DNA of 64,000 nucleotides from an uncultured Eubacteriales bacterium (GTDB lineage Bacteria > Bacillota > Clostridia > Peptostreptococcales > Anaerovoracaceae): assembly GCA_900317675.1 (NCBI GenBank), contig ONHU01000002.1, positions 10,697 through 74,696 of the forward strand. The letters run 5' to 3'. The notes below the pieces were generated by a model. That model did not search any database, was not told the origin of the DNA, and saw nothing but the letters and a program-made list of their open reading frames with translations. Positions 32,632 to 61,195 of this stretch are shown here, in pieces; within the stretch, counting starts at the first letter, position 1, and the number at the start of each line of letters is the position of its first letter. A program made the translations under genes and the position numbers.

Positions 32632-32820
32632 ATGTGCCTTTCAACTGTATACAGAAACGAAGTCAGCGATGCCAACATGCTCGCGAAGAATGTTGCGGAT
32701 GTGAGGATCGAAAACGGAAAGATCCTGTTCACGGATCTCATGGGGATCCGCACGGTTTTCGACGGAACTCTTGAAAAAGTGGATCTGATGGACAATTACA
32801 TCATCGTTAAGGATCTGTGA
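32632..32820 (+). CDS. CooT-family small protein (putative Ni-binding, N-terminal Met-Cys)
   Basis: 62 aa. MCLSTVY...V..VRIENGKILFTDLMG...VDLMDNYIIVKDL follows the CooT pattern (MC..a.vY, ...DL...I.l). GGAGGA RBS. Confidence 0.65.
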   Translation: MCLSTVYRNEVSDANMLAKNVADVRIENGKILFTDLMGIRTVFDGTLEKVDLMDNYIIVKDL

Positions 32821-34212: not shown

Positions 34213-35415
34213 ATGAAAGATCTTAAGCATCTTTTGTACTTTGAGGATCTCCTCCAGAATGCCAACAACGAACTGATCGAGCAGGCCCGTTCAGAGGGTC
34301 GTATCTGCGCAGCTTTCACTTGTGAAAATCTGCCTGAGCCTCTGATGAACCTCGGCAATGCCTTTTCAGTTCGTCTTTTTGCGCCTAATTCCGGCTCGCT
34401 GGATATTGCGACATATTATATGACCAATCTCCTGTGCGAGACGAGCCGCGCCCTTCTGGAGAGAGCGATTGAAGGAGGCTTTAATTTTGCCGACTGTCTG
34501 ATCGCCGCTGACGGATGCACTATGATGAACCGTGCGGCAGAGAATATGTGTCTTCTGAATACAATGGACGAAGACAAGAAGAAATTCTTCTATGAATTTA
34601 TGGAGATCCCGCTCAAGGCTGACGAAAACGGAGTGGAGCTGCTGGTGCTCCAGTGCAAAAACCACATACTGAAGCCGCTCAGCGAGAGATATGGAATAGA
34701 CGTTTCGGATGATGCGATACTCAAGGCTGTAGAAGAGCACAACGAAGTATGCAGACTCTTAAGAGAACTCGGTGAATTCCGCAAAGAAGAAGATCCGAGG
34801 ATCACAGGCTACGAGTTTGCTGTATTTACACTCGCATCCTACGTAGCGCCAAAATATCTTCTCATAGATAAACTCAGAGAGACCCTGGAGGAGGTCAGGA
34901 CAAGAGAGCCGGACGGCAAGAAGTGGCGCGCGCGCGTCATGGTAGTCGGCTCCGAGGTCGACGATGTCGCCTTCATCAAGCTCATCGAGGGATGCGATAC
35001 TTATGTATGCGCAGACAGATACTGCTTCGGATCATTCCCGGGCAGGGAACCGATCGTGATCGATCCTGCATCCGATGAGGATATCCTCACACAGGTCTGC
35101 CGCCATTACGTATACTGGGGCCAGTGTCCGCGTATGATGAACATGGACAAGGTCTACGGCCGCAAGAAATATGTCAACGATATAGCAAAAGAATATAACG
35201 CCGACGGAATCATCTATGAGCAGGTCAAGTTCTGCGACCCGTGGGCTTACGAGAGGATGCTCGGTTCACACATGCTCCGCGAGGATTACGGATTTCCTGT
35301 CCTCTCGGTAGACAGGCCGTACAATATCGCGTCCGGCGCCGGCCAGATGCGCACAAGAGTGCAGGCTTTCGTTGAGAGCATCGAGATCAAGAAGCTGCAG
35401 GGAGGTGAGAAGTAA
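34213..35415 (+). CDS. HAD/BCR-family component D small (beta-like) subunit, paralog 1 (S1)
   Basis: 400 aa from the ATG at 34213 (AAGAGG RBS; the ORF-track start at 34072 was rejected). MKDLKHLLYFEDLL. Conserved Cys in FTC, DGCT, KFCDPW. C-terminal RVQAFVESIEIKKLQ. Confidence 0.85.
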   Translation: MKDLKHLLYFEDLLQNANNELIEQARSEGRICAAFTCENLPEPLMNLGNAFSVRLFAPNSGSLDIATYYMTNLLCETSRALLERAIEGGFNFADCLIAADGCTMMNRAAENMCLLNTMDEDKKKFFYEFMEIPLKADENGVELLVLQCKNHILKPLSERYGIDVSDDAILKAVEEHNEVCRLLRELGEFRKEEDPRITGYEFAVFTLASYVAPKYLLIDKLRETLEEVRTREPDGKKWRARVMVVGSEVDDVAFIKLIEGCDTYVCADRYCFGSFPGREPIVIDPASDEDILTQVCRHYVYWGQCPRMMNMDKVYGRKKYVNDIAKEYNADGIIYEQVKFCDPWAYERMLGSHMLREDYGFPVLSVDRPYNIASGAGQMRTRVQAFVESIEIKKLQGGEK

Positions 35416-37019
35416 TGGCATACAAACGAATGAAAAAGATCGCCAACCCTAAAAGAAGAAAAGGCGAGCAGACGCTGGGACATCTCTATCCGACCAACGG
35501 CAAAAGCAAAGTTATGAGGCGCCGCGAATGGAGAGGTGTAAAGGATACCCTTTATGATTACACCAGATGGCTGTACATCATGTCTATCCTGGCAAGGTTC
35601 ATCTCCAAACCGAGAAACGTAAAAGCCATGTTCCGCTACAGATGGATGGCGAACTATCTGGCAGTTCCGCACATGATGGACAAGTTCACCCTCGGACTCC
35701 GCGATGAGCCTCTTCGCATCACACACACGGCAATGAATTTTGTCATCTACGATGTTGCCAAGACCATGGACAATATCTTCAGAGGAGACCGCAGGACAGG
35801 CAATGATGAAGAGTTCTCCCGTCACTGCGTTCTGACAGACGAAAATGCGATGACAGCATTCATGATGGGCTTTGACGAGACAAAGGCGATCCTCAGAGAG
35901 GTGCCTACCATGTTCGTTGCCAACCTGCTGACCCAGTATTCAACGACACACTATCTTGATGTCGCTCAGGAATTCGGACTTCCGGGAGATGTCTGCCCGA
36001 TGCCTGAGGCAGAAGCAGGAATATCCATCGATGACGACTTTGCTGTTCTCGGATGCTGCGCAGTTCAGGTCAACACCACCTGCGACGGTTCGCTTATGGG
36101 AAACGGCGTCATAGCAAGCAGACTCGAAAGAGAGTACGGAATCCCGACCTTCCAGCTGGCAGCTCCTATGCGCCACCGCGAGGATGACGTCCAGAAATAT
36201 GCTGCAGAGGATATCAAGGCAGCGATCAAATTCGTAGAAGACCATGCCGGCGAGAAGTGGAACTGGGACCGATACTTCGAATGCGCCAAGAGAGTCAATG
36301 ATGCTACCAGAAACAGGATGGAGTGGCTGGACATCAACAGCACATATTATCCGCAGTTCGTGGGATCTGTTTTCTCTCTCTACAATGATACTAACTACAT
36401 GGGCAACTGCGGCCGGTCAGAGCTCTTCCCGCCTATAGACAAGAAGATCATGAAGCTTGTCCATAAGGGCTACAAGAGAAAGACGATGATGGCTCCGGAG
36501 TACAGGCACAGATGCATCATCTGGGGCGTGCAGCCGCAGTACAACATCCACATGCTCTACTGGATGATCAACTGCTGGGGTGTACTGCCGCTGACGGACA
36601 TGCTGTCAATGGTCAACACCCGTATGATCGCAGAAGAGGATACTCCTGAAAACAGAGAACAGGCTTACTACGACATGGCATGGCTCAACGAAAACATGAT
36701 CATGCGTAACCGTACACACGGAGGATACAAAGTGCTCGTCGATGAGCTCTGGGAGTTCTGTGAGATGATGAACGCGGATATGGTCATGATGTGGGAACAC
36801 ATGTCATGCAAGGCGCTCGACGGACTTCACGGTATGTTCGAAGAGCAGGGCAGAGAGCGCGGCATCCATGTCGTATGGGTCTGTCACGATCTGTGCGACC
36901 CTCGTGTATACACACGCCAGGCGATCCGCGATGAGTTCAGTCAGTACATGAGAACAGTAATGCGCGAGGAGCCTATCGATCCGACGCTCGAAAACATACC
37001 TGATGAGAATATGTGGTAG
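35415..37019 (+). CDS. HAD/BCR-family component D large (alpha-like) subunit, paralog 1 (L1)
   Basis: 534 aa. Start overlaps the S1 stop (TAATG). GLPGDVCP, TCDGS, HMSCKALDG Cys motifs. Paralogous to L2 and L3. Confidence 0.8.
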   Translation: MAYKRMKKIANPKRRKGEQTLGHLYPTNGKSKVMRRREWRGVKDTLYDYTRWLYIMSILARFISKPRNVKAMFRYRWMANYLAVPHMMDKFTLGLRDEPLRITHTAMNFVIYDVAKTMDNIFRGDRRTGNDEEFSRHCVLTDENAMTAFMMGFDETKAILREVPTMFVANLLTQYSTTHYLDVAQEFGLPGDVCPMPEAEAGISIDDDFAVLGCCAVQVNTTCDGSLMGNGVIASRLEREYGIPTFQLAAPMRHREDDVQKYAAEDIKAAIKFVEDHAGEKWNWDRYFECAKRVNDATRNRMEWLDINSTYYPQFVGSVFSLYNDTNYMGNCGRSELFPPIDKKIMKLVHKGYKRKTMMAPEYRHRCIIWGVQPQYNIHMLYWMINCWGVLPLTDMLSMVNTRMIAEEDTPENREQAYYDMAWLNENMIMRNRTHGGYKVLVDELWEFCEMMNADMVMMWEHMSCKALDGLHGMFEEQGRERGIHVVWVCHDLCDPRVYTRQAIRDEFSQYMRTVMREEPIDPTLENIPDENMW

Positions 37020-37069
37020 AAATCCCGTCCCGCACAGACCGGCAGGACGCGAAGAAACAAGAAGAATCA

Positions 37070-37104
37070 AAAGAGAGATCCCGGAAACGGGATCTCTCTT
37101 GTTA
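37070..37104. terminator. Bidirectional terminator between L1 and the convergent lipoprotein gene
   Basis: AGAGAGATCCCG-gaaa-CGGGATCTCTCT: a 12-bp perfect stem with A-rich and T-rich flanks. Confidence 0.7.
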
Positions 37105-37124
37105 CATGAAACAGATCTCTTCTG

Positions 37125-38168
37125 TTACTGTGCCGTGAACGATGCCAGAAACTCTTCGAATACGGCCACATCGTCGTCTGTCAGAGCAGGGGCATCCGCG
37201 ATCAGATTGCCGTCAGAGTCATAGGAGCTCGCGCTCATGGTTATGATGTATAAAGCGCCGTCTGCCATAAAACCGGAAGTGCAGATGCGCAGGTTCCCAT
37301 CTGAATCAGGACGCTTCGATATGAAGCCCTCATTCCCCGCGATCGTAGTCGGATCTGCATCCTGCGCGTTTACGCTGTACTCCTCTTCAAGAGCAGCAGC
37401 CGCTTCCTCGCTTGATACATCGAGTTCAGTGTAGTCCGATTCATCAGTCTTGCTTATGCTGATGAGGAGGTTGTCCTTCGACATGTTGATAAATGAATCT
37501 GTGGTATCGGTAACCTCATATCCATCCGGTACAGTATATGTGAAAGCGCCGATGGAATTCTCCGGAATCCCTTTTTGCTGCATCGAAGCGCCGTCACCCG
37601 GCGTTACACTGGATATGATTTTATCGAATATTGCAACTTCGTCGCTGCCCAGAAGAGCCGCACCTTCTTTTGGCGTCCCGTCTTCTTCTACTGCGGACGG
37701 ATCGGCGAGTGTCAGTCTGTATACCGTGTCGTCATATATCCATGCTGCATTGAGATATAAATATTCGCCGTCTCCGGCTTTACGTTTGAGGTATACCGCG
37801 TCACTGCCGCAGATCTCAATTGACTCCTGCTCGAGATCATATTTGCTGATGTTTTCGTCAGAAGCTTTGCATACCTTATCGAAAAATTCCTGAACTGTCA
37901 TTTCGCTGTAGGCAGGGTCCAGGGACTCGAGAGCTCCCTCGGTGAGCATCTGGACGTTCAGGGAATATCCGCTGTCAGCGCCGCTGTATATAGAATAGCT
38001 GTCAGGCGCGAATTCAGTCAGTGACCAGTCGTCAGGCACAGTAAAAACGATGCTTCCGAGACCGGCATTGGCATCTGTATTCGACGGCTGTCCGCCTCCG
38101 CCGCATCCGGCGAATGAAAAAATCAGCGCAATGACTGAAAGCGCCACTATTATTTTTTTTCTTATCAT
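37125..38168 (-). CDS. Lipoprotein of unknown function (two internal repeats)
   Basis: 347 aa. MIRKKIIVALSVIALIFSFAGCGGG lipobox. Repeated FTVPDDW.../FTYTVPDGY... modules. AAGGAG RBS. Confidence 0.7.
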   Translation of the reverse strand: MIRKKIIVALSVIALIFSFAGCGGGGQPSNTDANAGLGSIVFTVPDDWSLTEFAPDSYSIYSGADSGYSLNVQMLTEGALESLDPAYSEMTVQEFFDKVCKASDENISKYDLEQESIEICGSDAVYLKRKAGDGEYLYLNAAWIYDDTVYRLTLADPSAVEEDGTPKEGAALLGSDEVAIFDKIISSVTPGDGASMQQKGIPENSIGAFTYTVPDGYEVTDTTDSFINMSKDNLLISISKTDESDYTELDVSSEEAAAALEEEYSVNAQDADPTTIAGNEGFISKRPDSDGNLRICTSGFMADGALYIITMSASSYDSDGNLIADAPALTDDDVAVFEEFLASFTAQ

Positions 38169-38235
38169 GATATGTCTCCTTATCTGAATCTTCCGTTTCT
38201 CTCGCGGAAGCCTGCAGCCCGGATCTCAGCCCGGA

Positions 38236-38556
38236 CTAACCGGCATTATTGATGAGAGAAAGAGCCTCCTCGATGAGGTCGTTGCTTTCGCCAAGCTTGT
38301 CGACAGCCTGATGGATCAGGTCACCGCTCACTTCGTCAAAGCAGTGAGCAAGATCATGAAGCTCCTCTGCATGGTGGCGGTTGTGGTTCAGCATATAGGT
38401 GAGAAGAGCCAGAGCTTCCTCAGGAGAAGAAGCAGGCGCGTGACTGTGTGAATGGACAGTGCCGTCCGCGTGTGTGTGGACATGAGTATGTCCGTCATGC
38501 TCATGCTCGTGCCTGACTGCATGTGTCGTTGTATCGTTTCCTTCTTTGCTGCACAT
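38236..38556 (-). CDS. Small histidine-rich putative metal-binding protein
   Basis: 106 aa from the ATG at 38556 (GGAGGA RBS). HAVRHEHEHDGHTHVHTHADGTVHSHSH followed by a helical LLTYMLNHNRHHAEELHDLAH. The longer ORF to 38871 would overlap the divergent gene. Confidence 0.6.
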   Translation of the reverse strand: MCSKEGNDTTTHAVRHEHEHDGHTHVHTHADGTVHSHSHAPASSPEEALALLTYMLNHNRHHAEELHDLAHCFDEVSGDLIHQAVDKLGESNDLIEEALSLINNAG

Positions 38557-38662
38557 GGTGATTCCTCCGCAGGTAGATTTTTTCTTGCAATTATTATAAT
38601 ATTCCATTAATGAGAGGTCTACAACCGGCTTTTTCGAAAAATCAGGAACCGGGAGAATACAT

Positions 38663-39622
38663 ATGGATAACATCATTGAATCGCGCCATAAACAGATAAA
38701 CGGAAAAATAGCGGTGATCGGACTGGGTGCTACAGGCTCGCCGATCGCGGATATGCTGTACCGGAAGTACGCGGACAGGTTTGTTCTGCTCTCGGACAGC
38801 AGGCATGCCGAAAGGCTCAGCAGCGGGCTTCTCCATATCAACGGCAGGACCTTCGATCCGGATGTGATCACGCCTGAGACCTATAACGGAGAAAAGATAG
38901 GGGTGCTTTTCATCTGCGTCAAGAATTACAGCATCGATGAAACGGCTGACCAGATCGCGGATATGATCGACGAAGATACGATACTCATGCCTCTGCAGAA
39001 CGGACTCTTCTCATACAACTATCTGAGAGAGCACCTTCCTGACAACATAGTCCTTGAAGGATTCGTACAGGGTCCCAATACAAGGATATACGGAAATGAC
39101 ATAGTATACCAGAATCCGGGAGTATATCATCTCGGGAAGAACTTCAGCGGAATGAAGGGTTATGCAAAGGCTGTATATGAGATCCTCCGGGATGCCGGAG
39201 TGCCATGCGTGCTGGAAGACGATATCAGACATGCTATCTGGTGCAAGCTGATGATCAATGTGGCCGGCAACGCGCTGACTGCTCTTACCGATCTTGACTA
39301 TGTCATGATCAGAAGCTCTGCGGAAGCGCAGAAGATCTGCCGCACGATCATGCAGGAGTACAAATTCGTAGCAGCTACGGAAGACGTCCTCATCACAGAG
39401 GCAGACATTTCCGAGGCGATGAACTATTTCATGACCTACAGCGAGTCAAAACTCACATCCATGCTCGAGGACGTCATGAACAAGAGGCAGACAGAGAACG
39501 AATTCATAGCCGGATACATCAAGCGGCTTGCCCAGAAGAATGGCGTGAACGCTCCGTTTATCGACATGCTCTACTCGATCATGCGCATCAAGGAAGATGT
39601 CTATCTCGGAAAGCTCAGATAG
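38663..39622 (+). CDS. 2-dehydropantoate 2-reductase family (PanE/ApbA) oxidoreductase, copy 1
   Basis: 319 aa. KIAVIGLGATGS Rossmann motif, VKNY, C-terminal SMLEDV...R.TE (ApbA_C). Confidence 0.78.
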   Translation: MDNIIESRHKQINGKIAVIGLGATGSPIADMLYRKYADRFVLLSDSRHAERLSSGLLHINGRTFDPDVITPETYNGEKIGVLFICVKNYSIDETADQIADMIDEDTILMPLQNGLFSYNYLREHLPDNIVLEGFVQGPNTRIYGNDIVYQNPGVYHLGKNFSGMKGYAKAVYEILRDAGVPCVLEDDIRHAIWCKLMINVAGNALTALTDLDYVMIRSSAEAQKICRTIMQEYKFVAATEDVLITEADISEAMNYFMTYSESKLTSMLEDVMNKRQTENEFIAGYIKRLAQKNGVNAPFIDMLYSIMRIKEDVYLGKLR

Positions 39623-39661
39623 CAGGAACAATATGCCGGAAACACTCATAAATAAGACCGG

Positions 39662-39697
39662 AAGGCCCTTGCGGAACCATCTCCGCAGGGCCTTTTA
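39662..39697 (+). terminator. Intrinsic terminator after PanE-like copy 1
   Basis: GGCCC(T)TGCGGA-acca/tc-TCCGCAGGGCC followed by TTTT. Confidence 0.7.
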
Positions 39698-39736
39698 TCT
39701 GTACGGGCGGTCATCAAAATAGTGCGCTGAACGCCT

Positions 39737-39750
39737 GGTCAGACCCCATA
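39737..39750 (+). repeat. Direct repeat copy 1, GGTCAGACCCCATA
   Basis: 14-nt exact repeat. Also the 5' arm of the inverted repeat GGTCAGA...TCTGACC (39737-39765). Confidence 0.6.
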
Positions 39751-39940
39751 TAGAGTATTCTGACCAAATGTAAAATAAAGTTCTAAAAAAATACAAAATT
39801 ACGGACAAAAACCCCCTGACGGGGATGCCATTTTCATTGACACATTAATCACAAGAGACTTAAAATATTACCAATAGTATAATGTTGGGAGTAGTGCGTC
39901 CGGAGGTATTTTTGTCTGTTTTTCAGACCGTTTTACTGCC

Positions 39941-39954
39941 GGTCAGACCCCATA
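39941..39954 (+). repeat. Direct repeat copy 2, GGTCAGACCCCATA
   Basis: Identical 14-mer, 40 nt upstream of the S2 start. Both copies are preceded by GCC(T/-)G and an AGTGCG element further upstream. Confidence 0.6.
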
Positions 39955-39993
39955 CAGACACTTTGTAATAAGAGGGAGGAAAGGTGACACACA

Positions 39994-41184
39994 ATGCGTG
40001 ATTTAAAGCATCTGATCTACTTTGAGGACCTTTTGCAGGAGGCAAACAATGACCTCGTGCGGAAGGGCAAGGAAGACGGCAATCTGTGTCTCGGATACAC
40101 TTGCTACTTCATGCCGGAAGTCCTCCTCGATCTGCCGGGATGTTTCTCGGTCAGACTGAGAGCGCCTAAGTGCACATCTCCGGATATGGCATCTTACTAT
40201 ATGTCCGGCAGAACCTGTCACTATGGCAGATCACTTCTTGAAAGAGCCCTGGAAGGCGGATACAACTTCATCGACGCCCAGCTCGCTACAGAGACCTGCA
40301 CGGTCACATGCAGATTCCAGGAGCATCTTGGCTACATGGATGACGTTATCAACAACTCGACATTCAAAACAGAGTTCACAGACGTTCCGTTCAAGAAAAA
40401 CGAAAACAGCATCGACCACTACAGGAAGCAGCTCAAGCTTCACGTTCTCGATTTCCTTGAAAGAGAGTATGGCGTAGACACTTCCGATGAAGCCATTCTC
40501 AAGGCAATCGAGATCAACAACGAAGTCAACGACATCATCACAGAGATCGGTAATTTCCGCAAACTCGATAACCCTACCATTACCGGATATGAGTTCAGCG
40601 TCATCACACTGGTATCGATGGTCTGCCCTAAGTATCTGATCGTCGACAAGCTCAGAGAGACGCTCGAGGAACTCAGGACAAGAGAGCCGGATGATAAGCC
40701 GAACTACAAGATCAAGGTCCTGCTCGCAGGTTCCGAGAACGATGACCCTGACTTCATCAAACTGATCGAAGGCTGCGGAGCTCTCGTAGTTGCTGACAGA
40801 TACTGCTATGGCTCACTTGAGGCCAGAAACCACATCAACATCGAGGAAGGCGACGATCCTCTGACTGCTGTCGCCAAGCACTATCTGCTTACGAGCCAGT
40901 GCGCAAGATTCATGGAGCAGAAGGAGATGAGAAACCGCAAGAAAGTCATCGCTGACTACGCCAAGGAATACAAGGCCGACGGTATCATTGTGGCATCCAA
41001 CAAGTTCTGCGAATACTGGAGCTATGAGAGAATGATCGATACCATCATACTCCCAAGAGACTACGGATTCCCGGTATGCTCCATCGAGAAAGAGTACATC
41101 AACACAGCATCCGGACAGCTGAGGACCAGATTCCAGGCGTTCGTTGAGAGTGTTGAACTCAAGAAGATCCAGGAGGTCAAGTAA
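39994..41184 (+). CDS. HAD/BCR-family component D small subunit, paralog 2 (S2)
   Basis: 396 aa. MRDLKHLIYFEDLL. Cys in YTC, ETCT, KFCEYW. C-terminal RFQAFVESVELKKIQ. GGGAGG RBS. Confidence 0.85.
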   Translation: MRDLKHLIYFEDLLQEANNDLVRKGKEDGNLCLGYTCYFMPEVLLDLPGCFSVRLRAPKCTSPDMASYYMSGRTCHYGRSLLERALEGGYNFIDAQLATETCTVTCRFQEHLGYMDDVINNSTFKTEFTDVPFKKNENSIDHYRKQLKLHVLDFLEREYGVDTSDEAILKAIEINNEVNDIITEIGNFRKLDNPTITGYEFSVITLVSMVCPKYLIVDKLRETLEELRTREPDDKPNYKIKVLLAGSENDDPDFIKLIEGCGALVVADRYCYGSLEARNHINIEEGDDPLTAVAKHYLLTSQCARFMEQKEMRNRKKVIADYAKEYKADGIIVASNKFCEYWSYERMIDTIILPRDYGFPVCSIEKEYINTASGQLRTRFQAFVESVELKKIQEVK

Positions 41185-41185
41185 G

Positions 41186-42823: not shown

Positions 42824-42834
42824 AAAGGAGGCCG

Positions 42835-43065
42835 ATGATGAAGAGAAAGGCTAAGAAAAAAAGAACTGTCGGCAGGTTCATTAAGAAAACGCTCAGACTC
42901 GGAGTGCTCGCTTATGCCGGACTGTTTTGCGTATTTTACTATGATCTCGACGGAAAGCTGCTCTACTACGTTGTTGAGCCGTTCTTGAAGAACCACTTCG
43001 ACAACATGGAGAGAAGAGATCCGACGACAGTACCATACGAACAGATCGATTCGGAGTACATGTAA
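42835..43065 (+). CDS. Small single-pass membrane protein (K-rich N-terminus), homolog of 50038-50220
   Basis: 76 aa. Strong GGAGG RBS 5 nt upstream. KKKRTVGRFIKKTLRLGVLAYAGLFCVFYYDLDGKLLYY. Confidence 0.55.
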   Translation: MMKRKAKKKRTVGRFIKKTLRLGVLAYAGLFCVFYYDLDGKLLYYVVEPFLKNHFDNMERRDPTTVPYEQIDSEYM

Positions 43066-43068
43066 AGT

Positions 43069-43166
43069 GAATCGCTTGTTCCGTCTCCCGAGTACGACTC
43101 GCGTCTCGCGCCGGCGACGCAGCGGTACTAAGCTCTGTCTTCGCCTGCGGCACGGAACAATGCGAT
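43069..43166 (+). other. GC-rich structured non-coding element (about 98 nt, closed by a 15-bp stem) containing a conserved motif
   Basis: AATCGCTTGTTCCGT (43069-43083) pairs with ACGGAACAA(T)GCGATT (43151-43166). It encloses the sub-hairpins CGAGT-acg-ACTCG and GCGTC...GACGC and the motif at 43118-43146. No U-tract. Confidence 0.5.
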
Positions 43167-43274
43167 TGAAACAGGAAAGCTGATGTGAACTGTATCGTTT
43201 CACTCACAAGCCTTGCAGCCTCATCAGTTTTTCAAAGATATAAGTTAAAAATACAGAAAGAAGTTACAGCAATT

Positions 43275-45191
43275 ATGAAGAAGAAGTTTAAAGCTGAATC
43301 CCAGCGTCTGCTGGATCTGATGATCAATTCGATCTATACGCACAAGGAGATTTTCCTGCGTGAGATCATTTCCAATGCATCTGATGCTATCGACAAAATG
43401 TGCTATCTTGCGCTGACGGACAAGTCGGTGGGTATGAACAGGAGCGATTTTGAGATCATCATCACTCTCGACAAGGAGAACCGTACGCTTACGGTCAGCG
43501 ACAACGGGATCGGCATGAATGAGGAAGAGCTCGAGAAGAATCTCGGAACCATCGCTTTCTCAGGAAGCAGGAAGTTCTCCGAAGAGATCGAGAAGGCTGA
43601 CAAAGCGAAGGAAGGCGCAGCAGCTGCGTCCCTTGCCGATCAGGTCGATATCATCGGACAGTTCGGAGTCGGCTTTTACTCAGCATTCATGGTAGCAGAC
43701 AAGGTCGAAGTCGTAACCAGAAAATACGGCGAAGACAAGGCCTGGAGATGGGTTTCTGAGGGAGCCGGGGGCTATACGATCGAAGAGGCAGAGCGTGACA
43801 GTCAGGGAACTGATGTCATCATGCACATCAGACAAGACGGCGAAGACAAGGATGAGTTCAGCCAGTACATGAGGGAGTACCCTATATACAAACTCGTAAA
43901 GAAGTACTCGGACTACATCCGCTTCCCGATCAAGATGCTGATGCCGCATCCTCAGATCAAGGAAGGCTCTGATCCGAAGAACCCGGAATATGAAGAGGTA
44001 TACGAATACGAAGTGTTCAACTCGATGGTTCCTCTGTGGCAGCGCAAGAGAGCGGAGGTCACCAAAGAGGAATACGAAGAGTTCTACAAATCGACGTTCC
44101 AGGATGATCTGGCTCCGCTTGAGACTATCACGGTCTCGGTTGAAGGAATCGTCAGCTATGACGCTCTGATGTTCATCCCGGAAAAGGTGCCTAACAAGTA
44201 CTATACGGACGACTTCACGGGAGGTCTTCAGCTTTACAGTTCCGGCGTCCTGATTATGGATCAGTGCAAAGAACTGCTCCCTGAATATTTCAACTTTGTC
44301 AGGGGCGTTGTCGACTCGCCGGATCTGTCCCTCAATATTTCAAGAGAAGTGCTCCAGCATGACAGACAGCTGAGACTGATCTCCAGGAATCTTGAGAAAA
44401 AGATCCGCGGCAAGCTCGAAGATATGAGGGACAATGACCGCGAGAAATACGAGACCTTCTACAAGAGCTTCGGCCGTCAGATCAAGCTCTGCGCGCTCGA
44501 TGACTACGGTAAGTACAAAGAAGAACTCCAGGATTTCCTGATGTTCTACTCCTCGACAGAAAAGAAGCTCGTGACGCTTGCTGAGTATGTCGGCAGGATG
44601 AAGGAAGATCAGGAGTACATCTACTACGCAAGCGGAGACAGTCTTGACGCAGTAGACAAGATGCCTCAGACAGAGATCCTCAAAGACAAAGGCATCGAGA
44701 TCCTGTACTTTATCGACAGCACGGATGAGTTCGTCTCGGATATGTTCAGAAGCTACAAGGACAAGAAGTACATGTCGGTCATCGACGGAGACTTCGATCT
44801 CGGAGACGGCAAGACAGACGAGCAGATGACTGAGACATTCAAAGACACCTTTGATTTTGTCAAGGAGACGCTCGGAGATAAGGTCGATGTAGTAAAAGCT
44901 ACGACCAAGCTGAAGTCTCATCCTGTATGCATATCAAGCGGAGACGGCATTACGTTCGAAATGGAGAAATACTTTACAGCCGTCAATCCGGAGCTTGGCA
45001 TGAAAGCCAAGAGGATCCTTGAGCTCAATGTGGATCACAAAGCGTTCCTGGCGCTTGACAGGGCAAGGCTCGATGATCCGGAAAGAGCTAAGAAGATGTG
45101 CGAGGTCCTCCTCAATCAGGCTCTCCTGATCGCAGGACTTCCGATCAACGATCCTTCAGACTACACAGACATCGTATGCTCATTCTTCTAA
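43275..45191 (+). CDS. htpG: Molecular chaperone HtpG (Hsp90)
   Basis: 638 aa from the ATG at 43275. FKAESQRLLDLMINSIYTHKEIFLREIISNASDAIDK, GQFGVGFYSAFMVAD. The ORF-track start at 43185 was rejected. Confidence 0.9.
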   Translation: MKKKFKAESQRLLDLMINSIYTHKEIFLREIISNASDAIDKMCYLALTDKSVGMNRSDFEIIITLDKENRTLTVSDNGIGMNEEELEKNLGTIAFSGSRKFSEEIEKADKAKEGAAAASLADQVDIIGQFGVGFYSAFMVADKVEVVTRKYGEDKAWRWVSEGAGGYTIEEAERDSQGTDVIMHIRQDGEDKDEFSQYMREYPIYKLVKKYSDYIRFPIKMLMPHPQIKEGSDPKNPEYEEVYEYEVFNSMVPLWQRKRAEVTKEEYEEFYKSTFQDDLAPLETITVSVEGIVSYDALMFIPEKVPNKYYTDDFTGGLQLYSSGVLIMDQCKELLPEYFNFVRGVVDSPDLSLNISREVLQHDRQLRLISRNLEKKIRGKLEDMRDNDREKYETFYKSFGRQIKLCALDDYGKYKEELQDFLMFYSSTEKKLVTLAEYVGRMKEDQEYIYYASGDSLDAVDKMPQTEILKDKGIEILYFIDSTDEFVSDMFRSYKDKKYMSVIDGDFDLGDGKTDEQMTETFKDTFDFVKETLGDKVDVVKATTKLKSHPVCISSGDGITFEMEKYFTAVNPELGMKAKRILELNVDHKAFLALDRARLDDPERAKKMCEVLLNQALLIAGLPINDPSDYTDIVCSFF

Positions 45192-45200
45192 GGAGATAAA

Positions 45201-45968
45201 ATGTCAGAAACACGTGACACCAAAATTTTAACAGTTGCAGGCAAAGGCGGCGTCGGAAAGACGTCGATCAGCTCGGCTATGGTCAGGATCCTCACAGAGG
45301 AATACCCTGACGCAAGGATCCTGGCGATCGATGCTGATCCGGCGATCGGGCTTACTACAGCTCTCGGAGTAGAGCCTACAGACACTCTTGACGGGATCCG
45401 CAAGAAGATCGTCGGAAGCGTCGAGGACGGACGTCCGAAGGAAGCGATCGAGATGCTCAACGAAGCAAGGTTCAGGATCTTCGATACAATGGTCGAAGAG
45501 AACAGATTCAGTTTTCTTGCCATCGGAAGACCTGAGGCTGCCGGATGCTACTGCAAGGTAAACGCATATCTCAAAGAGGTCATCAGCCTTCTGGCTAATG
45601 ATTTCGACTATGTGGTGATAGACGGCGAAGCCGGGATCGAGCAGATCAACCGCCGCGTCATGGAAAAGGTCACACACCTTTTCCTCATCACAGACCCGAG
45701 CCGCAAAGGCTGCAAGGTAGTGGATACGATCAAGTCCGTTGCTGACGAACTGGTGATGTACGACAAGTGCGGAGTCATCGTCAACAGGGTCAAGGAAGAA
45801 TCCATACCATATATTAAGATCGAATCGGCAGAGGTCCTTGCATACATCCCTGATGACAAGGCCCACTCCGACAACGATATAATGGGCATCAGCGTCTTCG
45901 ATCTGCCGGAGGATTCTCCGGTCATGAAAGGGACCAGGGAAGCCCTCAAGAAGATGCAGATAATTTAG
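45201..45968 (+). CDS. CooC/AcsF-family P-loop ATPase with CxC metal motif
   Basis: 255 aa. VAGKGGVGKTS deviant Walker A, AIDADP, GRPEAAGCYCKVNAYL (CxC), VVIDGEAGIEQ. Begins 9 nt after the htpG stop. Confidence 0.8.
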   Translation: MSETRDTKILTVAGKGGVGKTSISSAMVRILTEEYPDARILAIDADPAIGLTTALGVEPTDTLDGIRKKIVGSVEDGRPKEAIEMLNEARFRIFDTMVEENRFSFLAIGRPEAAGCYCKVNAYLKEVISLLANDFDYVVIDGEAGIEQINRRVMEKVTHLFLITDPSRKGCKVVDTIKSVADELVMYDKCGVIVNRVKEESIPYIKIESAEVLAYIPDDKAHSDNDIMGISVFDLPEDSPVMKGTREALKKMQII

Positions 45969-46033
45969 CCGGGGCGGCAGAGGGAGCTTTTCCCTGCGGC
46001 CAAGGCGCTTTATAAGAGAGGGAGGTTTTTACA

Positions 46034-47224
46034 TTGAAAGACTTGAAGCATTTAATCTACTTCGAGAACCTTCTGGACAACGCAGACAATGAGCTGGTGG
46101 AACAGGCCAGGAAAGACGGCAAGATGATCATGGGTTATACCTGCTATCACATTCCTGAAGTTCTCCTGAACGTTGACAACTGCGTGTCGGTGAGACTGCG
46201 TGCTCCTAGAACAGGATCGGTCGACATTTCCACATATTATATGTCGAACTATGTATGTGAATTTGCACGCGCTCTGCTGGAGAGGGCTATCGAGGGAGGA
46301 TATCAGTTCCTGGACGGACTTGCGGCAGTCGATGCCTGTTCGATGATGAACAGATTCTACGAGCACTTCGGCATACTCAAGTGCAACAACAAGGATCATT
46401 TCTTCCTGCCTATCCTGGACGTTCCTTACAAGACAGAGGAATTCTCCTACAGACACATGCAGAGACAGTTTGAGGCAAGACTCCTGCCGGCAATGCAGGA
46501 GAATCTGGGAACAGATATCTCAGACGCCAAGATCCGTGAAGCAGTCGCAATGCACAATGAAGTCTGCAAGGTCATCCAGGAGATCAGCGAGATGCGTAAG
46601 GCAGACAACCCTGTTATCACAGGATACGAGTTCCATGTGATCAATCTTGTCTCCTACACATGCCCTAAGTATCTGATACTTCCTTATCTCAAGGAGACTC
46701 TTGAGGAGCTCAGGAAGAGAAAACCGGATGAGAAACTGCCGAGAGCAAGAGTCGGCATCGTGGGTTCTGAGATCGATGATCCTGAGTTCACCAAGATGAT
46801 CGAGGATGCGGGAGCAAGAGTGGTATTCGACAGACATTGCTTCGGATCGATCCCTGGCAGAGAAGTGATCGAGCTTTCAGATAAGGAAGACGCACTTCCG
46901 CAGATCGTTCGCCACTATATGAATACTTCTGAGTGCGCTCGTTATATCGCAGACAACAAAGTACAACAGAGAAGAGAAACTGCTGACAGACTGGCGAAGG
47001 AATTCAAGGCAGACGGCATCATCTACGAGCAGATGAAGTACTGCGATTTCTGGGGATTTGAAAGAGCCCTCGTCAGCCACATCATGGCAGAAGAATACGG
47101 CTGGCCGGTACTGTCCATAGACAGACTGTACAACGCAAGAGGATCCGGACAGCTCAGAACTAGATTCCAGGCGTTCGTTGAATCGCTGGAGATCAAGAAG
47201 ATCCAGAAAGGAGGCAAGAAGTAA
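46034..47224 (+). CDS. HAD/BCR-family component D small subunit, paralog 3 (S3)
   Basis: 396 aa. TTG start 9 nt after GGGAGG. (M)KDLKHLIYFENLL. Cys in YTC, DACS, KYCDFW. C-terminal RFQAFVESLEIKKIQ. Confidence 0.82.
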   Translation: MKDLKHLIYFENLLDNADNELVEQARKDGKMIMGYTCYHIPEVLLNVDNCVSVRLRAPRTGSVDISTYYMSNYVCEFARALLERAIEGGYQFLDGLAAVDACSMMNRFYEHFGILKCNNKDHFFLPILDVPYKTEEFSYRHMQRQFEARLLPAMQENLGTDISDAKIREAVAMHNEVCKVIQEISEMRKADNPVITGYEFHVINLVSYTCPKYLILPYLKETLEELRKRKPDEKLPRARVGIVGSEIDDPEFTKMIEDAGARVVFDRHCFGSIPGREVIELSDKEDALPQIVRHYMNTSECARYIADNKVQQRRETADRLAKEFKADGIIYEQMKYCDFWGFERALVSHIMAEEYGWPVLSIDRLYNARGSGQLRTRFQAFVESLEIKKIQKGGKK

Positions 47225-48975
47225 TGGTACTGACAACAGAATTATTAGGCATCAGGAATTCTCTTGCCGAGAAGAAGGAACTCAAAGCTAAGAAAGCAGC
47301 CGCAAAGGGCAAAGTAAAATATCCGAATCCTGCATTCTGGCGCTGCAAGGACAATATGGACTTCAAGGCGCAGGGCAAGAACCTCATGGAAGTCGGCAAG
47401 ATCATCATGGAGATGACCAAGGAAGCCGACATCAAGGGCTTCTGCGCTAAGCAGGTTGACAGGTGCAAGGACGACCTTGCAAGATGCGCACTTGAGATCA
47501 GACAGGCAAAAGAGATGAGCCCGGAAGAGCGCAAGGAGGTCTTCCTCTACGGAGAGAGAACTCTCGGTAAGCTCTACCGCAAGGGTGACATGGTTCCTGT
47601 AAGAAGAGAGTGGAGAGGCGCTGCAGATACAGCATATGACTTCTACAGATGGGGCAAGATGTGGCTTATGCTGCTCACCACATTCAGCAGAGACCTTATC
47701 CCGGCGCTCAACTCGACATTCTACTACAGATGGATGATCTCATATTTCTGCTGCGTAGGCTTCATGGACAAGAACACCTCCGGACAGAAGGGAAGCGCTC
47801 TGAAGATGTCGCACCTGATGACATATGACATCTTCCGTTATGTAGCTGAGAACCTGGTATTCCTCGCTAAGTGTGACAAGAAGAACGGTAACTCCGCAGC
47901 ACTCAACAAGAAGGTCGTACTCTTCGACGAGATGACAATGGGACAGATCATGGCAGGATTCCCTGATCTCCTCGGTATCCCTTACCAGCTGATGCCGGTA
48001 TTCCTGGTATCCGAGATCGACCAGCTCACGTGCGTTCCTTATATCGACGCTGTTGAGAGTTTCGGTCTCCCTGCTGATACCTGCCCGGTACCAAGCTCAG
48101 AATGCGGAGCTCTCGTAATCGACGCTCTGCCGCACATGGGATCATGCTTTATTTCAAGTTCGATGCCTTGCGATGGTTCGGTAATGGCTTCTGAATACAT
48201 GTCAAGAAGATTCCCGGATCTGCCGGTATATCACCTGACATTCCCTGTCAGATACGAATACGAAGAGACAACGCAGGATGCTGTTGAAGACATCAAGGGC
48301 TGCATCAAGTTTGTTGAGAAAGTCACAGGCGCTAAGTGGAGCTGGGATGCTTACTTCAAGCAGATGAAGCGTTTCAACGAGGAAACTGCATATGAGCTGC
48401 AGAAGTGGGAAGTCAACAAGACTGACTATCCGCAGATCATCGGACCTTCCTACGAACTGTTCCGTAAGTGGAACTACGAAATGGACGGCGGAGCTGACCC
48501 TCGTGTCATCAAGACTTTTGAAAAGGTCAATGACATCATGATGAAGGGTTATGAGAGACGCGAGGAAGCATGGCGCAACAAGATGCGCTACAGAGGAATC
48601 GTATGGTCCTGCCCTGCACACTACTATGCTAACTTCAGTAACTGGCTTGCTAACTGCTGGGGTATCGACATCCTCGTAGAGATGGAATCCCTCAACTTCA
48701 CCAAGGTTCTCGAGACAGAGGACAAGGAAGAGGCTCTGATGGATCTGGCAAGGCTCTACGAAAGAATGGTAATGAGAAGACATACCAACGGCGGATACCA
48801 CAACGTAGTTGACGAGATGTGGAGACAGGTCGAAGACTGGAGAGCAGAGATGGACCCTAGAACAGTCTCCAGAAAGTCCATGAGAGACAAGGTCAACGAA
48901 TACATGAGGACAGTCATGAGAGCTGAGCCTGTAGACCCGACACTCTGCGACTTCGACGACGAGCTTGGAATGTAA
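47224..48975 (+). CDS. HAD/BCR-family component D large subunit, paralog 3 (L3), divergent: N-terminal extension and internal C-terminal deletion
   Basis: 583 aa. Start overlaps the S3 stop (TAATG). GLPADTCP and PCDGS are present, but the ..SCK.. segment conserved in L1 and L2 is missing. Confidence 0.78.
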   Translation: MVLTTELLGIRNSLAEKKELKAKKAAAKGKVKYPNPAFWRCKDNMDFKAQGKNLMEVGKIIMEMTKEADIKGFCAKQVDRCKDDLARCALEIRQAKEMSPEERKEVFLYGERTLGKLYRKGDMVPVRREWRGAADTAYDFYRWGKMWLMLLTTFSRDLIPALNSTFYYRWMISYFCCVGFMDKNTSGQKGSALKMSHLMTYDIFRYVAENLVFLAKCDKKNGNSAALNKKVVLFDEMTMGQIMAGFPDLLGIPYQLMPVFLVSEIDQLTCVPYIDAVESFGLPADTCPVPSSECGALVIDALPHMGSCFISSSMPCDGSVMASEYMSRRFPDLPVYHLTFPVRYEYEETTQDAVEDIKGCIKFVEKVTGAKWSWDAYFKQMKRFNEETAYELQKWEVNKTDYPQIIGPSYELFRKWNYEMDGGADPRVIKTFEKVNDIMMKGYERREEAWRNKMRYRGIVWSCPAHYYANFSNWLANCWGIDILVEMESLNFTKVLETEDKEEALMDLARLYERMVMRRHTNGGYHNVVDEMWRQVEDWRAEMDPRTVSRKSMRDKVNEYMRTVMRAEPVDPTLCDFDDELGM

Positions 48976-49027
48976 ATGAGCTGTCAGCAAGCCCCTCGCA
49001 CAGCAAATATACATGCATAAAGAAGGG

Positions 49028-49056
49028 GCAGCGGTGCTAAGCTCTGACGTCGCCTG
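49028..49056 (+). repeat. Second copy of the conserved non-coding motif GCAGCGGTRCTAAGCTCTG..(N3)..TCGCCTG
   Basis: 18/19 identity with 43118-43136, plus TCGCCTG at the same offset. Lies 53 nt after the L3 stop. Confidence 0.55.
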
Positions 49057-49097
49057 ACGTTGAAGAGACTCTAGACTGACCAATTGTTAAAAAATAG

Positions 49098-49126
49098 TTT
49101 ACAATGCCCGCGGTACTGAATATAAT
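49098..49126 (+). promoter_or_regulatory. Putative sigma-A promoter for the activase operon
   Basis: TTTACA, 17 nt, TATAAT, located 47 nt upstream of the activase ATG. Confidence 0.5.
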
Positions 49127-49172
49127 GTGGGCAGAATAGTACTTTTATTCAAAAAGAAGGAGAGAAAGAATC

Positions 49173-49964
49173 ATGAAATATTATGGCGGCTGTGATGTAG
49201 GTTCAACTTATACAAAGGCAGTTATTCTTGATGAGGACGGCAAGATGGTAGCTGATACCACTATCAAGAGCAAGATCAATTCAGAGGCAAGCGCAAAACT
49301 TGCTATGGATGAGGTTCTCGGCAAGGTTGGCCTCAAGTCCTCAAAGGAACTCGCTTACCTCATCGGAACAGGTTACGGACGTAACAAGGTTCCTTTCGCT
49401 GACGAAAACATCTCCGAGATTTCCTGCCACGCTATGGGCGTTCACGTAACAGACCCATCCGTAAAGGCTATCATCGATATCGGCGGACAGGACGTTAAGG
49501 GTATCGCAGTTGATACTGACGGAACAGTTAAGAACTTCGCTATGAATGATAAGTGCGCAGCCGGAACGGGCAGATTCTACGAAGCAATGGCAAGATCCTT
49601 CGAAATGACTCTTCCTGAGTTCTCAAAGCTCTCACTGACAGCTAAGAACGTAATTCCTATCACTGCACAGTGCACAGTATTCGCAGAGTCCGAGGTTATC
49701 ACTCTCGTAGGCGAAAACAAGCCAATGGACGAGATCGCTGCTGGAATCCAGATGGCTGTAGCTAAGAGATGCTTCGTAATGGCTAAGAAGGCCGGCGCTA
49801 CTGACTCCATCACACTGACAGGCGGATGCGCTAAGAACGACGGACTCAAGGACGCGATCGAGCACGTACTCAAGCTCAAGGTCATCAACCTCAAGACTGA
49901 CCCGCAGCTGATGGGAGCACTTGGTGCTGCTGAATTCGCTCGCCAGAAGGGACAGGCAAAGTAG
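49173..49964 (+). CDS. HgdC/BcrAD/BadFG-type activating ATPase (archerase) of radical dehydratases/reductases
   Basis: 263 aa. GCDVGSTYTKAVILDEDG, DIGGQDVKG, NDKCAAGTGRF, AQCTVFAESEV, LTGGCAKN. Single-domain, homodimer-type. Confidence 0.88.
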   Translation: MKYYGGCDVGSTYTKAVILDEDGKMVADTTIKSKINSEASAKLAMDEVLGKVGLKSSKELAYLIGTGYGRNKVPFADENISEISCHAMGVHVTDPSVKAIIDIGGQDVKGIAVDTDGTVKNFAMNDKCAAGTGRFYEAMARSFEMTLPEFSKLSLTAKNVIPITAQCTVFAESEVITLVGENKPMDEIAAGIQMAVAKRCFVMAKKAGATDSITLTGGCAKNDGLKDAIEHVLKLKVINLKTDPQLMGALGAAEFARQKGQAK

Positions 49965-50037
49965 TCCGCCGGGGCTATATCAGACAGATCCGTTCTGCAG
50001 ACTAAACCGCAGACGGAAGAACTGAAAGGAGCACAAC

Positions 50038-50220
50038 ATGGCAAAAAAGAAAAAATGTCCTGTATGCAGGGTAGTCGGCACAACAGTCAAGATCGGCTGC
50101 ATCGCAACAGGCGCACTCTTTACGGTCTATATGCTCAACCTCGACCAGAAGCTGCTCGCCTGGTCATATGCAAGAGTCAATGAGATCTTCGACCGTAAAC
50201 CGGTAGACATCAAGTTCTAA
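50038..50220 (+). CDS. Small single-pass membrane protein, homolog of 42835-43065
   Basis: 60 aa. GGAG RBS 6 nt upstream. MAKKKKCPVCRVVGTTVKIGCIATGALFTVYMLNLDQKLLAW. Confidence 0.5.
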   Translation: MAKKKKCPVCRVVGTTVKIGCIATGALFTVYMLNLDQKLLAWSYARVNEIFDRKPVDIKF

Positions 50221-50239
50221 AATTCTTAATCATGCATAG

Positions 50240-50269
50240 GCGCCCTCACGTTTACAGGCGTGAGGGCGC
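50240..50269 (+). terminator. Strong hairpin after the activase operon (no U-tract)
   Basis: GCGCCCTCACG-tttacagg-CGTGAGGGCGC, an 11-bp perfect stem. Confidence 0.45.
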
Positions 50270-50773
50270 TAATATAATAGAAATTATTGCAGTGATCAAT
50301 AATGTGCAATGAGCGGGTACCGGAATAAGCAGGTCAGCTTGCGGGATATCACGGCACAAAAGCAGTTTGCGAAAAGATTGTACATGAAAAGCCGGAAATG
50401 ACGCTTCTGTGTACAATACTTTGCAGCCGGAACCGGGCTGCCGGGGTGAAAGAGAAGAATCACATTCCAACTAAGGAGTTTTTTGCCCGTATAAGGGCAT
50501 GATAGAGCGATTATCAGCTGTTATTATGTGAAAAGCAGAAATTATAATGCATTAATGCTCTGAAAACAGATAAGCAGAGAGATTTATTGTACATATCAAG
50601 GGCTTTTTCGCCGTTTCATGTACAGTTTTCAATAAAAGTCCGCTGCACGCAATGCAGAAGTGATGTGAACCGATGGCTCGGCATACCAGCCGGCGGTGCG
50701 GAACATCAAAACGAAGAAGCGGACAGATAATGTTAAGATCGATGTATCGACGAGATAATAAAGAGGGATAATA

Positions 50774-57370: not shown

Positions 57371-57528
57371 AAATATAGTGCTGCACACAGATCCTCCCGG
57401 ATACCATGCGTCCGAAGCGGTCTTCAGGACAAGAAAAAACAAGAAGAATATGTGAATTGCTGTATCAAATGACATTTTTTGTGTATAATAAATTGGTTTG
57501 GAATGAGAACAGAAAGGTAATAAGAATA

Positions 57529-61135: not shown

Positions 61136-61195
61136 GAGAAATTAATACCCAAGCTAATCCATAAAGTCATTATCAGAAACGGAGGACTATTGATT

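Follow-up and report, generated by a model that had tools for sequence, protein, structure and literature searches.

What kind of enzyme is encoded by three pairs of genes of the HGD-D family (PF06050), lying together with a single activating ATPase and a group of unusual companions, is the question raised by a locus in the genome of an uncultured Eubacteriales bacterium of the Anaerovoracaceae. The stretch analysed, referred to below as the window, comprises 64,000 nucleotides (nt) of contig ONHU01000002.1 (assembly GCA_900317675.1, positions 10,697 to 74,696 of the forward strand), and all coordinates are positions within it. The related benzoyl-coenzyme A (CoA) reductases (BCRs) and 2-hydroxyacyl-CoA dehydratases (HADs) catalyse reductions and eliminations that are among the most difficult in anaerobic metabolism, and substrates are known for just a handful of them. 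We read the locus, with a probability of about 60%, as an uncharacterised but conserved enzyme of several components that belongs to the BCR/HAD superfamily and has a dedicated accessory set of its own. A small subunit (S), a large subunit (L), a small hydrophobic protein (sm), an activase (Act), a CooC-like ATPase and a CdhC-like protein form a set found repeatedly in anaerobes that range from Clostridia of the rumen and gut to Desulfosporosinus, and the enzyme appears to join BCR-like cofactor motifs and an HAD-like single activase to an accessory set without precedent. The clade would retain, outside aromatic degradation, a double-cubane subunit like that of BCR, and it is genetically linked to proteins otherwise known only from the maturation of nickel enzymes, namely carbon monoxide dehydrogenase (CODH) and acetyl-CoA synthase (ACS). 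Identifying its substrate could reveal a new reaction in gut and rumen metabolism, and work on the accessory proteins could point to a new route of cofactor assembly or electron delivery for ATP-driven low-potential enzymes.

Three S/L pairs and one activase

The three pairs lie on the forward strand as S1 (34213-35415) and L1 (35415-37019, 534 aa), S2 (39994-41184) and L2 (41186-42823, 545 aa counted from ATG), and S3 (46034-47224, TTG start) and L3 (47224-48975). S and L are joined by TAATG overlaps or a 1-nt gap with GGAGG ahead of each, in agreement with the translational coupling proposed in a preliminary description of the locus made from the sequence alone. All six open reading frames (ORFs) match PF06050 above the gathering cut-off, the S proteins across their whole length (266-295 bits; E=9.5e-79, 2.8e-87 and 1.1e-87 for S1, S2 and S3) and the L proteins over their C-terminal two thirds only (92-97 bits; residues 176-500 in L1). 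Act (49173-49964, forward strand) is the single BcrAD/BadFG ATPase of the window (PF01869, 189 bits, E=2e-55; TIGR00241, 214 bits), an "archerase" of the HgdC/HadI/BzdQ type whose best matches in the PDB are MbdQ (5e-62), HadI (6e-59) and HgdC (5e-53); against the bzdQ model TIGR03192 it scores 172 bits, with a cut-off of 380. The component D plus activator architecture and the single HgdC-type ATPase recognised earlier are thus both borne out by family matches. The gene order, small before large, had been thought unusual and is in fact that of bzdN-bzdO.

The S subunits are 50-53% identical to one another and share the terminal motifs described previously. They contain six invariant cysteines (C37, C75, C102, C271, C305 and C341), not three as had been noted, and all six are kept in 12 of 12 diverse S proteins, those of Desulfosporosinus and a spirochaete included. 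The best PDB match of S2 is BzdN (8s02_B, E=5.7e-23), and in this alignment every one of the six stands opposite a cysteine of BzdN, Cys36/73/100/263/293/327, which are the ligands of the [8Fe-9S] double-cubane cluster in the BzdNO structure (PMC11971306). The double cubane of BzdN is described as able to store two or more electrons; it has been lost from the beta subunits of HADs, which retain only a [4Fe-4S]/[4Fe-5S] remnant (PMC11971306). The cysteine spacing is also compatible with the seven-cysteine motif of the double-cubane cluster protein (DCCP) less its non-ligand cysteine (PMC7317905). S would accordingly be a beta-type subunit with a cluster of the BzdN type, as predicted from the ligand alignment.

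The L subunits are far more divergent, with a mutual identity of only 33-37%. The motifs GLPxDxCP, CDGS and (S/Q)CK are present as first reported, and their cysteines in L1 (C194, C223 and C465) stand opposite Cys95, Cys128 and Cys380 of BzdO, which hold the catalytic [4Fe-4S]-OH2 cluster (PMC11971306). The same three positions align in L2, so that L is predicted to be an alpha-type catalytic subunit with a [4Fe-4S] cluster held by three cysteines. A profile of L finds DCCP as its top sequence match in the PDB (9e-9), followed by BzdO (4e-5) and MbdO. The AlphaFold2 model of L1 (predicted local distance difference test, pLDDT, 86.5; predicted template-modelling score, pTM, 0.90) has BzdO, HadB and MbdO as its best Foldseek matches, with target-normalised TM-scores of 0.68-0.77 and an identity of about 14%. 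All L proteins have an N-terminal extension of 100-190 aa, the longest of the three being that of L3; in the L1 model and alignment, an additional bundle of helices (residues 42-124) bears the family motifs REWRG.KDT and YRWM, both of which also occur in L2. A candidate for a fourth ligand in the pocket, Cys387 (NCWG), is restricted to the closer clade in a 24-sequence family alignment and was dropped as a family-wide feature. Run against 1.84 billion representative proteins, the profile of L has no more than 186 matches at E<1e-30, rising to 1049 at E<1e-3; the L family is compact and clearly set apart from mainstream HGD-D.

The absence of (S/Q)CK from L3 had been noticed and is real; its cause is particular to this genome. 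An in-frame deletion of 114 nt with clean ends, situated near 48849 at a short microhomology (GAT), has cost the protein 38 residues, the third cluster cysteine among them, and the orthologs of two close relatives (loci L007 and L008, 620-621 aa) and of a metagenome-assembled genome (MAG) of the Oscillospiraceae (locus L070, 597 aa) are intact. Judging from this loss, L3 of the present genome is probably inactive, a decaying paralog, provided that the deletion is more than an assembly variant.

By curated scores the pairs fall outside every family with which they share their apparent cofactor layout, which is that of a Bzd-type BCR. The S proteins reach 80-102 bits with TIGR03190 (bzdN; cut-off 454) and 65-80 bits with the HadC equivalog model NF052456 (cut-off 700). 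NF040772 (double_cubane; cut-off 350) is the top NCBIfam match of both subunits, S reaching 115-138 bits and L 21-34. In the release of June 2026, NCBIfam holds no specific model for S, L, the CooC-like, CdhC-like, sm or CooT proteins of the locus. Together with the low identity of L to solved relatives, these scores agree with the earlier view of an uncharacterised deep branch of HAD/BCR.

Accessory proteins

The CooC-like protein (45201-45968, forward strand) is a MinD-type ATPase whose best PDB match is CooC1 (3kje, E=4e-16). It has both of the motifs by which the CooC family is recognised, the deviant Walker A sequence GKGGVGKT and a Cys-x-Cys predicted metal site. The latter, GCYC, is unchanged in 7 of 7 diverse homologs and stands opposite Cys112/Cys114 of CooC1, which are strictly conserved and bind metal (PMC6006190).

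The CdhC-like protein (50774-51511, forward strand; PF03598) is a fragment by comparison with ACS. A profile of 12 sequences matches residues 333-492 of the Moorella enzyme, the middle domain (E=3e-11), which is reported to interact with CoA (PMC12289521). Three cysteines in a C-terminal DCxxCx5C motif (C216, C219 and C225) are unchanged in 12 of 12 diverse homologs, and the protein stops 20 residues past this motif. It has no A-cluster Ni site and, with a match to the middle domain only, differs from ACS, whose A-cluster domain combines a four-cysteine [4Fe-4S] site with a Cys-Gly-Cys Ni site. Its AlphaFold2 model (mean pLDDT 54) was too poor for a fold search and was not used.

Two small proteins, sm2 (42835-43065) and sm3 (50038-50220), both on the forward strand, are homologous and consist of a basic N-terminus, one hydrophobic helix (a hydrophobic 19-mer in sm2) and a Y(F/W)xxLDxK motif. 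The sm2 type is found 3' of L genes, with homologs of about 55 aa and the motif YFFNLDMK..EP.L.KHYD. The sm3 type is located between the activase and CdhC-like genes; its conserved core LFVVYFWNLDQKLL.W.Y..VN.IFDRK occurs in dozens of loci, always in the order Act-sm3-CdhC-like. These membrane-like proteins brought to mind an enzyme like the plasmalogen synthase PlsA/PlsR, an idea that was set aside; PlsA has fused ATPase domains and DUF2229, and L has PF06050 only.

Further companions are present in this lineage. A CooT-family protein of 62 aa (32632-32820, forward strand) matches PF10133 with 61.4 bits (gathering cut-off 27; E=1e-16) and starts with MC; the second residue is the Ni-binding Cys2 of CooT (PMC6006190), which places the protein, on its sequence, among the Ni chaperones. 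A His-rich small protein (38236-38607, reverse strand, start codon uncertain) includes the sequence HAVRHEHEHDGHTHVHTHADGTVHSHSH and has no match in Pfam or NCBIfam; its homologs adjoin CooT/HtpG in loci L001, L009 and L118, and a metal-binding accessory role like that of CooJ is possible. HtpG (Hsp90; 43275-45191, forward strand, in an ORF that opens at 43185) matches PF00183 and NF003555 (661 bits). Two reductase genes complete the list, both on the forward strand: an aldo/keto reductase with a C-terminal 2x[4Fe-4S] ferredoxin domain (AKR-Fer4, 32845-33984; PF00248 and Fer4 families), and a PanE/ApbA-family 2-oxoacid reductase-like protein (38663-39622; PF02558, PF08546 and TIGR00745). HtpG, the CooC-like ATPase, the small hydrophobic proteins and both reductases had been named as companions in the preliminary description; CooT, the CdhC-like protein and the His-rich protein had been overlooked.

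Recurrence of the gene set

A genome search with L1 yielded 80 loci, and a metagenome scan starting from the CdhC-like protein also yielded 80. These loci carry three-digit labels, as distinct from L1 to L3, the large subunits of the window. S lies immediately upstream of L in every L1-derived locus in which upstream sequence is present, and an sm2-type gene follows L directly in at least 25 loci of Oscillospiraceae, Lachnospiraceae and others. Flanks of 3 kb or more on at least one side of the CdhC-like gene are available in 45 of the metagenome loci; sm is found in 30 of these, S in 23, Act in 22, L in 21, the CooC-like gene in 20 and HtpG in 8. Those that lack these genes are mostly contigs that end just upstream of the CdhC-like gene. 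Act-sm3-CdhC-like is a near-constant triad. Dozens of independent genomes and metagenome contigs share the arrangement, far beyond chance, so that the absence of this neighbourhood from any other genome, which would have counted against the earlier interpretation, is not observed.

Not all companions are equally constant. HtpG, situated between sm2 and the CooC-like gene in the same 8 of 45 metagenome loci and in Anaerovoracaceae relatives, is a lineage-restricted companion, and CooT lies upstream of AKR-S1-L1 in nearly all relatives of this family. AKR-Fer4 adjoins S-L in the Oscillospiraceae loci L049, L053, L055 and L070, in both orientations. The PanE-like gene is a variable companion, found in some close relatives only; a PanE-family gene also precedes S-L in the distant locus L173.

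The order of the genes differs between families. In Blautia they form a compact operon of overlapping genes, CooC-Act-CdhC-S-L-sm-sm, a minimal system open to direct testing. An Oscillospiraceae MAG has AKR on the reverse strand followed by S, L, sm, CooC, S, L, Act, sm and CdhC. Directly 3' of the CdhC-like gene in L070 (positions 17775-19868) lies a gene for an "enoate reductase-like" protein of 697 aa, of the old yellow enzyme (OYE) type with flavin mononucleotide and flavin adenine dinucleotide (FAD), which fits a pathway of dehydration and reduction.

Between one and three S/L pairs accompany each CooC/Act/CdhC-like set (L084, L070, L151, L170, L174 and the window), a pattern in line with the earlier suggestion that several modules share one ATPase. 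The term "triplicated" is misleading by contrast. Genes of the L1, L2 and L3 types each have orthologs of 65-80% identity in other families and are nearer to these than to the paralogs in their own genome, which rules out a recent triplication; from these identities the three pairs appear to be old isoenzyme types gathered at one locus. Rumen and human-gut Clostridia are rich in members of the S/L clade, of which single clusters at 90% identity hold thousands of sequences, and the clade extends to sulfate reducers and spirochaetes.

An FeS/FAD oxidoreductase of 815-900 aa, of the family of the putative isoprene reductase IsrA, is a repeated neighbour of the S/L module. Its gene lies on the opposite strand right after S-L-sm in L043, L050, L055, L057 and L061, and further copies are found at L173 14188-16890 and L174 11613-14060, the protein of L173 being 51% identical to that of L043. 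There is no IsrA-family gene within the window. HypA, found near S-L-sm in some Oscillospiraceae, was considered as a link to nickel and not counted, as it is co-oriented with the oxidoreductase of about 900 aa from the IsrA family, a known HypA partner.

Distant relatives and the question of CoA thioesters

The scanned ORFs of at least 150 aa in the window include no CoA-transferase, no acyl-CoA dehydrogenase (ACAD) or electron-transfer flavoprotein (ETF) and no regulator, as the preliminary description had stated; the scan left out ORFs 20-484, 1488-2432 and 2398-3024 at the window start, distant from the locus. An action on substrates other than CoA thioesters had been considered possible on these grounds. 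Distant loci were reached by a profile of distant L proteins, with neighbours pre-annotated by Pfam. Desulfosporosinus fructosivorans has, in order, a sigma54 activator, CooC, S, L, Act, sm, sm, CdhC and a zinc-dependent alcohol dehydrogenase (Zn-ADH), followed by EtfB, EtfA, FixC, FixX, ACAD, a short-chain dehydrogenase/reductase (SDR) and enoyl-CoA hydratase (ECH). In L170, EtfBA, FixCX and ACAD precede, at some distance, S, L, sm, S, L, CooC, Act and CdhC. L173 begins with Act, sm, CdhC and AcnX and continues, further on, with two CoA-transferase subunits, a thiolase and the PanE-like gene, then sm, S, L, CooC, Act, CdhC, sm and a 900-aa oxidoreductase. L174 consists of SDR, epimerase, CooC, S, L, Act, sm and CdhC and then S, L, an 815-aa oxidoreductase, a thiolase-like gene and an AMP-dependent ligase; the core of L175 is the same. 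L172 has the order S, L, Act, Act, CdhC, CooC, S, L, Act, and the two tandem BcrAD-type ATPase genes beside its S-L pair (5709-7315; GCA_041753395.1) suggest, on sequence grounds, that some members use a heterodimeric ATPase like that of BCR.

The CXC of CooC, the CxxCx5C of the CdhC-like protein, the sm motif and the six cysteines of S are all retained in these distant loci; the accessory set is therefore ancient and integral to the system. CoA-thioester metabolism is also the commonest metabolic context of the S/L system, and independence of CoA is unsupported because the distant relatives adjoin CoA-transferases, CoA ligases, ACAD/ETF and ECH. The lack of such genes in the window is best read as a matter of local genome organisation.

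The idea that survives best next to our own is nevertheless the one suggested by the window itself, in which an atypical HAD/BCR branch acts on free acids or other carbonyl compounds, with AKR-Fer4 and the PanE-like protein supplying or consuming the substrate. Neither CoA-transferase nor ligase nor ACAD/ETF is found there, AKR-Fer4 adjoins S-L repeatedly in two families, SDR, OYE-like and PanE-like reductases turn up in other loci, and many S-L-sm operons have no companions at all. Against this stand the CoA-transferase, thiolase, AMP-ligase, ACAD/ETF and ECH genes around distant members and the always-linked CdhC-like protein, which is homologous to a domain that contacts CoA in ACS; CoA-activating enzymes may moreover be encoded elsewhere in the genome. 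We hold a non-CoA substrate to be unlikely. Overall, the deep branch and the shared activase of the earlier interpretation are supported, and the non-CoA substrate, the triplication and the modest cofactor content of S are not.

A model for the S/L system

In the multi-component enzyme that we favour, S and L of each pair would form a heterodimer. Act, presumably a homodimer with a bridging [4Fe-4S] cluster, would accept an electron from ferredoxin or flavodoxin, and ATP hydrolysis by Act would push this electron at low potential into the double cubane of S, the site of electron entry and storage. S would then pass electrons to the [4Fe-4S] cluster of L, the catalytic subunit, where the substrate would bind at the open iron site. 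A single Act may serve all three modules, which as old paralogs presumably differ in substrate. The substrates would most likely be carbonyl-activated organic acids, probably CoA thioesters, and the chemistry a ketyl-radical reduction or dehydroxylation. A net reductase is favoured over a redox-neutral dehydratase because the double cubane, capable of holding two electrons, appears to be retained and because genes of electron supply recur around the system (EtfAB/FixCX, the IsrA-family FeS flavoproteins and AKR-Fer4). The accessory set would comprise the CooC-family ATPase, the protein with the ACS middle domain and the small hydrophobic proteins, with CooT, the His-rich protein and HtpG added in this lineage; maturation of a metal site, a role as electron or CoA adaptor, and membrane tethering are all compatible with the data.

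Several points weigh against this model. The double cubane of DCCP assembles in E. coli without special factors, and BzdNO has likewise been made there with its double cubane (PMC11971306). The model therefore leaves the CooC/CdhC-like set unexplained. Sharing of one activase is suggested by gene counts in the 64-kb window, and the rest of the genome could encode a further activase, CoA-transferases or CODH. Chemistry of the Birch type known from BCR is unsupported because the position of the catalytic His131 of BzdO is occupied by Ser226 (CDGS) in L and varies across the L family. The inference on the substrate is weak because in many Oscillospiraceae the S-L-sm operon stands by itself amid housekeeping genes. 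No transporter or CoA-activating enzyme was found with the locus in the window. The literature yielded no experiment on the S/L system and no description of it; full-text searches aimed at it turned up no paper that connects proteins of the HGD-D or BcrAD type to CooC, CooT or anything ACS-like, a description in a subscription journal being possible, and the Haft SAO/double-cubane preprint concerns a different gene neighbourhood.

The accessory proteins could be accounted for if the S/L system needed a heterometal, of which nickel is the likeliest, and if the CooC-family ATPase supplied it, with help from CooT and the His-rich protein in this lineage. The metal might be destined either for the CdhC-like protein, whose three invariant cysteines could form a dimer-bridging Ni/Fe-S site, or for L. 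The resemblance to CODH/ACS maturation (CooC/AcsF, CooT and CooJ) extends to the Walker A and Cys-x-Cys motifs, Cys2 and the His-rich protein, and to the shared core of the CdhC-like protein and ACS domain 2. It ends where the client enzymes are concerned: neither CODH nor ACS is found in the window or in the relatives' loci retrieved, the genes sit inside operons of the BCR/HAD type, and the CdhC-like protein is without the Cys-Gly-Cys and most of the A-cluster domain of ACS. As the link to nickel is a genomic one, we regard this extension as speculative and rather improbable. If true, the system would be the first among the ATP-driven BCR/HAD radical enzymes to depend on Ni or on an ACS fragment, and would form a new class of client for maturation factors of the CODH/ACS type.

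Comparison with characterised enzymes

An ordinary 2-hydroxyacyl-CoA dehydratase set of Stickland-type amino-acid fermentation, with its CoA-transferase and dehydrogenases encoded elsewhere, would explain the PF06050 heterodimer with a separate, presumably homodimeric activase close to HadI/HgdC (as in HadBC/HadI, HgdAB/HgdC, FldBC and LcdAB), the fold of L near that of HadB (target-normalised TM-score 0.74-0.77), the ACAD/ETF genes close to distant relatives and the host, a member of the amino-acid-fermenting Anaerovoracaceae. PanE-family enzymes are able to act as 2-hydroxyacid dehydrogenases, which would suit such a pathway. Yet S keeps the complete double-cubane cysteine set, where the beta subunits of known HADs have only the remnant; its HadC score is a small fraction of the cut-off; L shares about 14% of its residues with HadB and has the N-terminal extension in addition. 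The S/L order is the reverse of hgdAB, the window is without a CoA-transferase or a 2-hydroxyacid dehydrogenase of the usual type, and we know of no characterised HAD with CooC, an ACS fragment or small-protein partners. This leaves a conventional dehydratase only a slim chance.

A class I aryl- or alicyclic-carboxyl-CoA reductase of the Bzd type, with ATP-driven ring reduction, is nearest in predicted cofactor architecture (BzdNOPQ and MbdONPQ; 8S02 and 9GAI): a six-cysteine beta subunit as in BzdN, a three-cysteine alpha subunit as for the [4Fe-4S]-OH2 cluster of BzdO, the small gene ahead of the large one and an ASKHA ATPase whose nearest PDB match is MbdQ. Two tandem ATPase genes are found in L172, and the Zn-ADH, ECH, SDR and ACAD of the Desulfosporosinus cluster are, as we take it, reminiscent of the Had/Dch/Oah steps. 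The likeness does not extend further, since L and BzdO share only about 14% identity and L carries the helical extension with REWRG and YRWM, the Glu65/His131 pair fails at His131, where L has Ser, and the bzdN model is missed by a wide margin. The window has one ATPase gene instead of two (BzdP/BzdQ) and no aromatic-pathway genes, the locus adds CooC-like, CdhC-like, small-protein and CooT partners, and the system abounds in gut and rumen fermenters and in housekeeping contexts, all of which makes ring reduction very improbable.

A DCCP-like reductase of small molecules (of the acetylene, azide or hydrazine type) with the double cubane as active site is scarcely credible: NF040772 leads the NCBIfam matches of S and L, DCCP heads the PDB matches of the L profile, S has the six ligand cysteines at the same spacing, L has LPxxxCP and TTCDG motifs, reduction would be driven by ATP through an archerase in both, and the window holds no organic-substrate genes, but the NF040772 cut-off is missed by both subunits, DCCP is a homodimer of a single seven-cysteine protein (PMC7317905) with two double cubanes whereas S, with six of the seven cysteines, is always paired with L in a predicted heterodimer in which L retains only three or four of them and would have lost one subcluster, and the double cubane in the beta subunit of BzdNO is an electron store and not an active site (PMC11971306).

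Genomic setting

The locus is flanked by rho and DUF1385-prmC on one side and by the arg operon and prfA on the other, near a region with mnmE-mnmG-rsmG-parAB-dnaB. Its GC content equals that of the flanks, and close relatives keep the setting between rho/prmC and prfA, and a mobile island was rejected on these grounds. The closest genomes are Anaerovoracaceae and Mogibacterium-like MAGs from the rumen and ruminant gut, with L1 identities of 93-97%. For a riboswitch or other RNA, such as a NiCo riboswitch, Rfam gave zero matches at gathering thresholds and, at E<=1, one spurious snoRNA only. Promoter and terminator scans gave counts no higher than in shuffled sequences and offer mere hints to the transcription units.

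Some minor observations concern the surroundings of the S/L genes. DUF1385 and PrmC, a release-factor methyltransferase, are fused in one gene (29837-31936), and prfA (57406-58596) lies 25 kb away from it, with the entire S/L locus and the arg operon in between. The interval between L1 and the PanE-like gene holds a lipoprotein-like ORF (37125-38168, reverse strand) with a signal peptide and Cys and a weak match to DUF4367; this slot is variable, and relatives carry versions of 30-39% identity or other genes in its place. Between sm3 and the CdhC-like gene, which abut or overlap in most other genomes, there is a 554-nt stretch (50221-50773) with no convincing ORF and no Rfam match. A second PanE/ApbA paralog followed by a transporter of the Mem_trans/SBF family is found at 61190-63126 and may be tied to the S/L locus.

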